A stretch of DNA of 64,000 nt, from the NCBI RefSeq assembly GCF_030013205.1, contig NZ_CP122648.1, one strand, 5' to 3'. This stretch comes from Escherichia coli. GTDB taxonomy: Bacteria > Pseudomonadota > Gammaproteobacteria > Enterobacterales > Enterobacteriaceae. Below are positions 60,301-64,000 of this stretch, in pieces. Position numbers: made by a program. Every line of letters begins with the position of its first letter. The first letter of the stretch is position 1.

Positions 60301-63300
60301 GGTTCCGGCAATGACCCTTATTGAATATACGCCGGATATGGATAAGTCTTCTGTGCCGGTGTTAATCCCCCGTAATGAGCAGTTTACAACCAACGCCGGG
60401 GAAATTAGAGTCGATGAAGTGCTGCCCTCCGATGCTAAAAAGGAGGAGCCGCCTCCCTGTACCTTCACCCTCTGCCGGGATATCTGGCTGCTGCCCGTTC
60501 GCCAGGAGCAGATTGAAAACCGCAGTACGCCCCGTAATGGTGTTATCAACATCACCTTTTCGGTCGCACCGGGAACGGACTTCCGCACGCTGGATCTGAA
60601 CAAACTTCGCTTCTGGCTCGGCAATGACGACAACTATACCCGTGACCAGCTTTATTTATGGTTCTGTGAATACTTGCAGGGTGCCGACCTGACTGTGGGT
60701 GAACAGCATATTCGCCTGCCTGAGTTTATGCTGAAAGCTGTCGGTTTTGAGCCGCAGGATGCCATGCTGCCCTGGCCGAAAAACGTCCACAGCGGCTACC
60801 GGATCCTTCAGGAGTATTTCTGTTACCCCGATGCGTTTCTCTTTTTTGATCTTTGTGGTTGTCCGGCTTTGCCTGACGGATTGCAGGCGGAATTCTTTAC
60901 CCTGCAACTGCGTTTTTCGCGCCCTTTGCCCGTGGACATCCGGCTGCGCCGCGATTCCCTGCGCCTGTATTGCGCACCTGCCATTAATTTATTTATCCAC
61001 CATGCAGAAGCCATCACGCTGGACAACCGGCGGGCAGACTATCCGCTGGTTCCCAGCCGCCATTACCCACAACATTACGATGTATTTTCCGTTAACAGTG
61101 TGGTGAGCCAGGTCCAGGATATGTTCAGGAAAAAAGATCTGGGGCGTCCTGTTTCGACGCAGGCCGCGCGCCAGTGGCCAGCCTTTGAAAGTTTCAGCCA
61201 TCAGATGGAATACAGCCGGAAGCGGGAAGTGGTGTACTGGCATCACCGGACCAAAACATCCCTGTTCCATCGCGGCTTTGATCATACTCTTGCCTTTATA
61301 CATGCTGATGGCAGTTATCCGTCAGATGAATCTCTGCTCAGTAATGAAGTGGTTTCGGTATCGCTGACCTGTACCAACCGTGAGCTTCCGTCACAAATTC
61401 GTTCCGGCGATATCACCGGCACAACCGGTAAAAATGCGGCTGTTGCTTCATTTCGCAACATTACCCGCCCGACGCAACCACTCTGGCCGGTCATTGATGG
61501 CAGCCTGCACTGGTCCCTACTCTCCGCCATGAACCTGAATTATCTGTCATTACTGGATACGGATGCGCTGAAGCAGGTCATCGCCAACTTTGATCGCCAC
61601 GCAATCCATCATCCGCAGACGGCACGGCTGTCACAACAAAAGCTGGATGCCATTGAGCGTCTGGAGACCCGCCCCGTTGATCGCCTGTTTACGGGTATTC
61701 CCGTCCGGGGGCTGGCCTCCACGCTGTATCTGCACCCGGAGCCGTTTGTCTGTGAAGGGGAAATGTATCTGCTCGGTACGGTGCTTTCGCATTTTCTGTC
61801 GCTGTACGCCAGCGTTAACTCATTCCACATGCTGACCGTTGTGAACACAGAAAGCCAGGAGACATGGAAATGGACGGAAAGAATCGGGCAGCATCCTCTT
61901 ATCTGAGTCCGGGAAATCCCCCGGCAGATAAAGAGCAGAATGATCCGCTGGCACAGGTTTTCCATAATGCCTGCTCTTACAATTTTTTTGCGATGGCGGA
62001 GCTGTTGCACCGCCTGGCAAAGGGTGAAAAGGGGACGCCAGAATTATCCCTGCGTGACGATCCGGCACAGGAAACCCTGCGTTTCAGCGCCGATGCCAGC
62101 CTTGCGTTTCCCCTGAGTGATATCAGTGCGCTGAAACGGGATACGTCAGGGGCATTCAGGATGACCACTACCTTTATGGGGTTACAGGGGAGCCAGTCGC
62201 CTCTCCCCGGTTATTACCTCGATCACCTGGCCTGGAAAGCGGTACATGAACAAAGTCCGGTAGGTGATTTTCTGGATATGTTCAGCCACCGCCTGACCCA
62301 GTTTGTCTGGCATATCTGGCGTAAGTACCGCTATCACATCAGTTTTCGTAACGGCGGTGTGGATGCGTTCTCGCAGCGCATGTACTCCCTTGTTGGGCTG
62401 GGCCACCGCCAGCTTCGCGATAAGCTGGCGATTAATCACAGCAAAATGCTGGCGTATTCCGGGATCCTGGCAAATCCGGGACGATCCCCGGAAATAATCT
62501 GCGGTCTGGTGTCCCACTGTTTTGATTTGTCAGACGTGACGCTGCAAAACTGGCAACGTCGCAAGGTGGATATTGAACCGGATCAGCAAAATAGCCTGGG
62601 GAGTTATTCACTTAAAAATGGCGAAAAACTGGCAGGAAGATCGGTACTGGGCAACTTTGTTCTGGGTACACGGGTGCCCGATCTCAGCGGAAAATTCCAG
62701 CTCAGTATTACCAGCCTGACCCGAAAACAGTTCCTCTCTTTTCTGCCGTCCGGCGAAAACTTCCTGCCACTGACGATGTTTGTGTCCTTCATCCTGCGCG
62801 ATCAGCTTGCCTGGGACTTACATCTGGGGCTGGCGCCGGAGCAGGTGGGCGCAATGCGCCTGGGCGATAACAAAAGTGCGCTGCTGGGCTGGACCAGCTT
62901 CCTCGGCACACCGGAAGAACGACCTTCAGTCACCATCAGGGTACGGTCGTAAATTATGATAATCACGGAGCAGAATATGCCGGAAGAGAAACTACAGACG
63001 CTTTCATTGCAGGTCATTAACGGCAGTGAGCTGGAAAGCGGGCGGGCGGCGCGCTGTCTGTTCACACAGCTGGGAAATGTCGGCCATGGCCCCGAATGCC
63101 ACTGGTCGGTACAGGATCGTCAGCAGAGCATTCCGGCTCAGGCTTTTACCGTTATCCTGCACGATGGCACATTTTGTCTGCGCCCGCAGACGGCACAACT
63201 GTGGCTGAACCAGGCAAAAGTCACAGCAACATCAGACCTTATACAGCTGCGCCAGGGCGATTAGATCCAGATAGGGCGTCTGATGGTGAGGGTTCATCTG

Positions 63301-64000
63301 AACCGGGGAGATATCCCCCATTACGATGAGGAAATGGCCACTCCCGAAACCATCGTCACCAATCGCGATATGCTCACGGATACCCTGCTGTCAACGGAGG
63401 GTGCGCCACACTATCCGGGAATGACTCACCGGCATCAGCTTGCAGACACCGTGGTAAACGGTTTTTCTGCCGATCCACTCCAGGCTCTTCAGTCCGAAAG
63501 CCTGATTACCACGGGCGATCCGCTTTCAGGCATTGCGGCTGTCCGGCCATCGGCACCGCTGTCCGATCCGGCAAGTAATGGGGGGATCAATACGCCGTTT
63601 ATGGATCTGCCGCCCATTTATGCCAGCCCCGGCGATCGTAATGATGACGTCTCTGTGGCAGAAATGGCGCAACGCCACCTTGCGGTCACCCCCTTACTGC
63701 GCGGTCTCGGCGGTTCGCTTACCGTGAGCAATTCCGACGATGCGGATGATTTTCTGGAAGAGGCCGGACGAACGTTACAGGCCGCAATAAAAGGTCTGCT
63801 CGATTTGCAGCAACAGCGTAACAGCCTCTCAGACAAACATTTGCGCCCGCTGGAAGATAACCCGCTGCGCCTGAACATGGATTACGCCACCGCGCTCGAC
63901 GTGATGTTTGCCGAAGGTAAAAGTCCGGTACATCTGGCGGCTCCCGCCGCTGTCAGTGAAAGCCTGCGCAATGTCCGCCACCACGAAGAAGCTAACCGGG

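Follow-up and report, generated by a model that had tools for sequence, protein, structure and literature searches.

In E. coli ST410-B/H24 the T6SS-2 type locus has clade-specific deletions, which were shown by junction-sequence screening (PMC10711316), and in O157:H7 both T6SS-2 degeneration and a repeat insertion in tssM have been reported (PMC12981562). In the description of the T6SS-2 type, rhs lies downstream of vgrG, and the locus also has a gene for an FHA protein and an extra tssA and tssD (PMC10711316). TssM, TssA and VgrG are core components needed by a functional T6SS (PMC12981562). Proteins of the TagH/Fha type have an accessory role in activating T6SS assembly, and in P. aeruginosa and Serratia the kinase that phosphorylates them is PpkA (PMC10482370). 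V. cholerae is without PpkA or PppA, yet TagH is still needed for Hcp secretion in this organism (PMC10482370).

The DNA analysed here, a single stretch of 64,000 nt from E. coli that is referred to as the window, contains part of a chromosomal T6SS island at the yafV/aspV locus. By its described gene layout the island appears to fit the E. coli 'T6SS-2 type' of Cummins et al. Strain 4621 has the intact locus, which is flanked by yafV and yafT/tRNA-Asp and is arranged as rhs-vgrG-hcp/tssB-orf-tssC-tssE-tssF-tssG-tagH-tssJ-tssK-tssL-tssH-vasI-tssA-tssM-vasL-hcp2. In the window tagH is preceded by tssB, tssC, tssE, tssF and tssG, and it sits between tssG and tssJ; tssJ, tssK and tssL follow it in genomes of identical sequence. 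It is the same gene, in the same tssG-tssJ position, as known TagH/Fha genes (e.g. WP_001113717.1, V. cholerae TagH, and P. aeruginosa Fha1), and its ancestral sequence has their two-domain architecture; however, the window copy is stopped at codon 96 and is a pseudogene. No PpkA or PppA kinase or phosphatase is annotated in the intact E. coli cluster of strain 4621, which resembles V. cholerae in this regard; therefore, TagH would not be expected to act via the threonine-phosphorylation pathway of P. aeruginosa and Serratia. The features of the locus are listed in Table 1.

Table 1. Coordinates of the tagH lesion and of neighboring features of the T6SS island, numbered from the first letter of the window
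Feature	Position	Strand	Remarks
Rhs C-terminal remnant, toxin-end fragment	54477..56648	-	PGAP: 'RHS repeat-associated core domain, missing N-terminus'
Deletion junction, 9-bp microhomology	56658..56666		5.26 kb gone: hcp1, vgrG, 5' 2.3 kb of rhs
tssB	57347-57847	+	NCBIfam equivalog above cut-off
74-aa ORF	57882-58106	+	Intact; between tssB and tssC
tssC	58157-59632	+	NCBIfam equivalog above cut-off
tssE	59639-60052	+	NCBIfam equivalog above cut-off
tssF	60056-61906	+	NCBIfam equivalog above cut-off
tssG	61870-62952	+	NCBIfam equivalog above cut-off
tagH pseudogene	62977..64000	+	Codons 1-341 of 426 in window; PGAP annotation of identical sequence and TIGR03354 on both sides of stop
Residual N-terminal ORF	62977..63261	+	95 codons (102 from ATG 62956); FHA minus last strands
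Second lineage-specific tagH change	63071	+	A>T, Gln32Leu; only other difference from CFSAN018748 tagH
Premature amber codon	63262..63264	+	GAG (Glu96) to TAG, G>T at 63262
In-frame ATG (Met103), candidate restart	63283..63285	+	18 nt after stop; weak AGGG 7 nt upstream

A preliminary description of this DNA reported that an in-frame TAG splits tagH and is followed by 245 open codons, which is borne out by both the sequence and the colinear homology to TIGR03354. The TAG is in frame with the ATGs at 62956 and 62977. Across it the frame reads LIQLRQGD, the stop, and IQIGRLMVRVHLNRGD (also given as LIQLRQGD-stop-IQIGRLMVRV), and it stays open up to the window end; the gene extends approximately 257 nt further. 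The upstream piece matches positions 1-90 of the NCBIfam TIGR03354 (TagH) profile with 54 bits, and the downstream piece alone matches positions 92-342 with 161 bits, which is above the curated cut-off of 120.25 bits. Exactly one profile position is occupied by the TAG. In K_EC180 and W13-16, which have the identical sequence, RefSeq/PGAP annotates tagH as 'pseudo, internal stop'. The pseudogene is already flagged in RefSeq, and the case adds another instance to a process that has been described before.

The preliminary description started tagH at 62956, which gives a fragment of 102 aa. There is an in-frame ATG at this position, but the PGAP/RefSeq start is the ATG at 62977. Since the latter has GGAG 8 nt upstream and no Shine-Dalgarno sequence was found before ATG 62956, the N-terminal fragment is most likely 95 aa long. 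Alignment with TagH orthologues, which the same description had proposed as a check, gives the ancestral state of the stop codon. In ST2747, in strain 4621 and in the closest sister strain, CFSAN018748, tagH is a continuous ORF of 1,281 nt that encodes the 426-aa WP_001113717.1. Codon 96 is GAG in all three, and a single G>T change results in TAG. Two residues differ between the tagH of the window and WP_001113717.1. The orthologues are single ORFs, which disagrees with the idea that a small FHA gene is naturally separate from a TagH starting at the downstream Met. The tagH gene is a recently formed, clone-specific pseudogene that arose via an ordinary lineage-specific nonsense mutation.

The position of the stop within the protein was assessed with domain calls on the intact orthologue, which is two residues off the window sequence; the window itself has only codons 1-341. 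The intact TagH has an N-terminal FHA domain and a C-terminal T6SS_FHA_C domain. Pfam FHA (PF00498) covers residues 35-100 with a weak score (E=4.9e-4) and reaches the last position of the model, while Yop-YscD_cpl, a related FHA-like family, spans residues 28-105. T6SS_FHA_C (PF20232) covers residues 242-415 (E=2.9e-41). The stop had been placed after the FHA domain; codon 96 is inside it, after the conserved G-D and ahead of the I-x-I-G...V-x-V segment (residues 96-110). A low-confidence AlphaFold2 single-sequence model of residues 1-140 (mean pLDDT 55) has two β-strands, 96-99 and 102-110, and is disordered from residue 112 onward. A search of PDB chain sequences with the intact TagH gave no match at E<=0.01, so the stop could not be placed on a solved structure. 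Since the stop removes the last strands of the β-sandwich, it is unlikely that the residual peptide is a complete, folded FHA domain; the fragment would probably misfold and is presumably non-functional. The earlier view that TagH is truncated is correct, but not the view that what is left is a stand-alone FHA domain.

The stop has a narrow distribution. In a set of 5,426 complete E. coli genomes, 2,281 have a match to the 1.1-kb tagH region, and the identity is 100% in 13 of them, all porcine. A 61-mer with the TAG at its centre has exact matches in 17 of the 5,426 genomes, which are all from swine or wild boar (K_EC180, W13-16, P15-25, EC556, EC571, EC581, and eleven 'ETEC' isolates). CFSAN018748 comes next, with one mismatch in the 61-mer and a GAG at codon 96. 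The last 24 kb of the window (40000-64000) are 100% identical to K_EC180, to several 'ETEC' pig isolates and to the O139:H1 strains P15-25 and W13-16, and there are zero mismatches to K_EC180 in 53900-64000. W13-16 and P15-25 are O139:H1 ST1 edema-disease STEC (STEC-ETEC hybrid) with Stx2e (PMC8798679), and this O139:H1 ST1 typing is documented in 2 of the 17 TAG genomes. The tagH stop is fixed in one porcine edema-disease/ETEC E. coli clone.

The same clone has two deletions in the T6SS cluster. When compared to intact loci by BLAST, the window aligns within rhs up to 56666 and just past hcp from 56658 on. The second deletion (7.04 kb) is just downstream of the window in K_EC180, where it fuses tssH to vasL and takes the tssH C-terminus, vasI, tssA, tssM and the vasL N-terminus. 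Full-length matches to the 81-mers over each deletion junction occur in exactly 17 genomes, and these are the genomes that have the TAG. Based on this 17-of-17 co-occurrence, the genome of the window presumably carries the 7.04-kb deletion as well. The second hcp copy downstream is kept in the identical genomes, and tssB, tssC, tssE, tssF, tssG, tssJ, tssK and tssL are still intact ORFs. Because the clone is so young, these intact ORFs say little either way. A functional T6SS cluster has 13 core components, TssA-TssM. When Hcp, VgrG, TssA, TssM and a complete TssH are taken as the mark of such a cluster, the set is incomplete, with hcp1 and vgrG deleted in the window itself. Since hcp1, vgrG, tssA, tssM and the end of tssH are lost, the locus would be non-functional regardless of tagH, and the gene content predicts that its apparatus cannot assemble in this clone whatever the state of tagH. 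The suggestion that the truncation impairs T6SS regulation is beside the point, as vasI, tssA, tssM and the tssH end are gone in all TAG genomes.

Changes in approximately 13 kb of the cluster were polarised with strain 4621 and CFSAN018748, excluding a patch in tssB. The lineage-specific changes are tssC K124R, tssF T159P, one synonymous change in tssF, tagH Q32L and tagH E96stop, which is a small sample of 4 non-synonymous vs 1 synonymous changes. In tssB, 16 sites differ between the window and the sister strain. Each of these changes is synonymous, the TssB proteins being identical, and most lie in a cluster, which suggests a recombination patch. The 4:1 ratio fits relaxed constraint or neutral decay, and selection on the T6SS cluster has probably been relaxed. 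A G>T transversion turned Glu96 (GAG) into an amber codon within the FHA domain of a TagH that was otherwise canonical at 426 aa, in a clone that also lost hcp1, vgrG and the rhs N-terminus in one deletion (5.26 kb) and the stretch from the tssH C-terminus to the vasL N-terminus in the other (7.04 kb). The stop is then probably one more lesion accumulating under relaxed selection in a disabled T6SS island. Overall, the best explanation is very probably that tagH became a pseudogene through a nonsense mutation specific to this clone, within an island that is disabled already. The tagH stop and the two deletions occur together in the same 17 genomes, with which any order of the three lesions is compatible, and the stop could have come first and been consequential.

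Other explanations of the stop would leave tagH intact or in use. If the TAG were a sequencing or assembly error, the true base would be G and the gene would be intact. Such errors do occur among these assemblies, as elsewhere four single-base indels, one or more of them in a homopolymer run, separate K_EC180 from the window; however, the change in tagH is a substitution rather than an indel in a homopolymer. Seventeen complete genomes share the identical 61-mer, among them records from South Korea and France, and both Illumina and PacBio were used to sequence W13-16 and P15-25, which carry the TAG (PMC8798679). It is very unlikely that 17 independently sequenced genomes from several countries share the same wrong base. 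Amber suppression, in contrast, would tolerate the stop and restore a full-length TagH, and reliance on readthrough had been offered as one reading of the locus. The base following the tagH stop is A, and there is a second in-frame TAG in the same 64-kb window, in ecpA (3008-3010). However, GAG to TAG and the presumed CAG to TAG of ecpA are the sole one-step nonsense routes from these codons, and two ambers are therefore unremarkable. Of the 17 TAG genomes, only 7 carry the ecpA stop, which therefore arose later, within a sub-clade, and the differing ages fit serial pseudogenisation. The Gln tRNA cluster of K_EC180 has the wild type anticodons TTG, TTG and CTG and supE was not found there, in a check that covered the Gln tRNA genes. 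A mutated glnV (supE) query gave 155 exact matches, and all of the 60 matches listed were K-12 laboratory strains. The TAG is absent from the sister strain CFSAN018748 and is not conserved across lineages, and a restored TagH would meet no TssM, TssA or VgrG. With a young stop in one clone and wild type tRNA-Gln anticodons in K_EC180, nothing supports reliance on readthrough, and this explanation is hardly credible.

It is also very improbable that selection keeps tagH as a functional split, in which a stand-alone FHA peptide is made together with a protein re-initiated at ATG 63283 (residues 103-426). This in-frame ATG is present as claimed in the preliminary description, it lies a short distance past the stop with a weak AGGG upstream, and its product would keep the C-terminal PF20232 domain. 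However, the split was not found in the other sampled E. coli, where the orthologues are one ORF, and the stop cuts the FHA fold ahead of its last strands. The split is limited to a clone whose cluster is without essential genes, and this clone is so young that conservation would tell nothing. Low-level re-initiation at the ATG may take place, but the product would have no apparatus to serve. A last alternative concerns the loss of the T6SS in the O139:H1 ST1 edema-disease clone, with the tagH stop included, which may have been adaptive rather than neutral. CFSAN018748 has lesions of its own in the cluster: IS66 sits in vgrG, while hcp, tssC and tssH have annotated frameshifts or stops. Some of these lesions may be assembly errors. 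These independent lesions could mean that there was repeated selection against the T6SS in Stx2e-carrying pig strains. However, according to PMC8798679 the O139:H1 prophage with Stx2e is defective and probably cannot be induced, which counts against adaptive loss, and this alternative is unlikely. An adaptive loss would parallel the link between T6SS-2 degeneration and carriage of the Stx2 prophage that was reported for O157:H7 (PMC12981562). Decay of a disabled island under relaxed selection is the preferred explanation of the tagH stop.

The tagH stop has little biological weight, being a routine pseudogene within a decaying gene cluster. The TAG and the 5.26-kb and 7.04-kb junctions are clean clone-specific markers. 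The virulence-gene inventory of O139:H1 ST1 lists 'T6SS, vgrG1, rhsA' (PMC8798679). Since the locus would be unable to build the apparatus in any of the 17 complete TAG genomes, finding tss genes in a strain of this clone should not be taken to mean that it has an active T6SS.

The porcine clone (O139:H1 ST1 and related ETEC) has the same locus type as the ST410-B/H24 and O157:H7 cases, and across these successful clones the locus has been disabled by point lesions and by deletions whose junctions contain no mobile elements. In ST131-C the lineage-specific T6SS degeneration is due to ISEc12 in tssM. The junction sequences of ST410-B/H24 and of the porcine clone show single events that became fixed in the clade. 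The porcine clone is unlike these cases in its breakpoints, which run from rhs to the hcp-tssB spacer and from tssH to vasL. It also differs from ST410, ST131-C and O157:H7 in having an additional nonsense mutation in tagH.

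The window carries a second in-frame amber codon, which lies in ecpA, the gene that encodes the E. coli common pilus major subunit. The reading across this stop is ...GFNS*KGLF..., and the gene is labelled "internal stop" in the PGAP annotation of the near-identical genome K_EC180. Since the exact 61-mer containing the ecpA stop is found in only 7 of the 17 genomes that share the tagH TAG, the sequence comparison places the pseudogenisation of ecpA as the younger event, within a sub-clade.

K_EC180 and the window differ by two mismatches and four single-base indels over 50 kb (window 1-26600). 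The sole indel looked at is in a homopolymer, the A-run past the start ATG of ecpA, which has 7 A in K_EC180 and 8 A in the window. Homopolymer errors in either assembly may be the source of the indels between the two genomes. The "frameshifted" label of ykgL in K_EC180 may likewise result from such an error.

The gene tssB (window 57391-57832) has 16 differences relative to the sister strain CFSAN018748, the closest relative without the tagH TAG. All of them are synonymous and most are clustered; the TssB proteins of the two strains are identical. The genes adjoining tssB have 0-2 differences in the same comparison, and the pattern of substitutions in tssB is probably that of a short recombination tract. 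The T6SS of CFSAN018748 also has independent lesions. Its vgrG is interrupted by an IS66 element (ISCro1), hcp and tssH are annotated with an "internal stop", and tssC is annotated as "frameshifted". This suggests that the same system is decaying in parallel in the sister strain, although some of these lesions may be assembly errors.

The match of TagH to the FHA domain is weak (Pfam E=4.9e-4). Canonical FHA domains have the features G-R and S-x-x-H; at the place of the canonical motif, residues about 25-60 of TagH (window 63050-63150) read ...VGHGPECHW...QQSIPAQAF... No PpkA or PppA is annotated across the whole intact T6SS cluster of strain 4621. Classical phosphothreonine binding may be absent in the TagH of this locus.

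The window also contains an island that adjoins tRNA-Thr. According to the annotation of K_EC180, its cargo includes AbiEi/AbiEii, which form a toxin-antitoxin pair, together with all of a type I restriction-modification system (hsdR, hsdM and hsdS).

Features of the window and of the sister-strain T6SS locus
Feature	Position	Remarks
ecpA, E. coli common pilus major subunit	window 2810-3397	in-frame TAG at 3008-3010
Island adjoining tRNA-Thr	window about 19785-28992	with integrase remnant; K_EC180 annotation
prfH (release factor H) and neighbouring rtcB-family RNA ligase gene	window 37706-39456	both annotated intact
Flag-2 (lateral flagella) locus remnant	window 42109-44578	lafU, plus flhA that is truncated at its N-terminus
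hicA/hicB toxin-antitoxin pair	window 44683-45310	after Flag-2 remnant
CFSAN018748 T6SS	L005 4844-23469	independent lesions; annotation

The metT-leuW-glnU-glnW-metU-glnV cluster of K_EC180 (L008, its tRNA-Gln region, 8378-8969) has one tRNA-Gln(CUG) gene, whereas the corresponding region of MG1655 (L007) has two, glnV and glnX.
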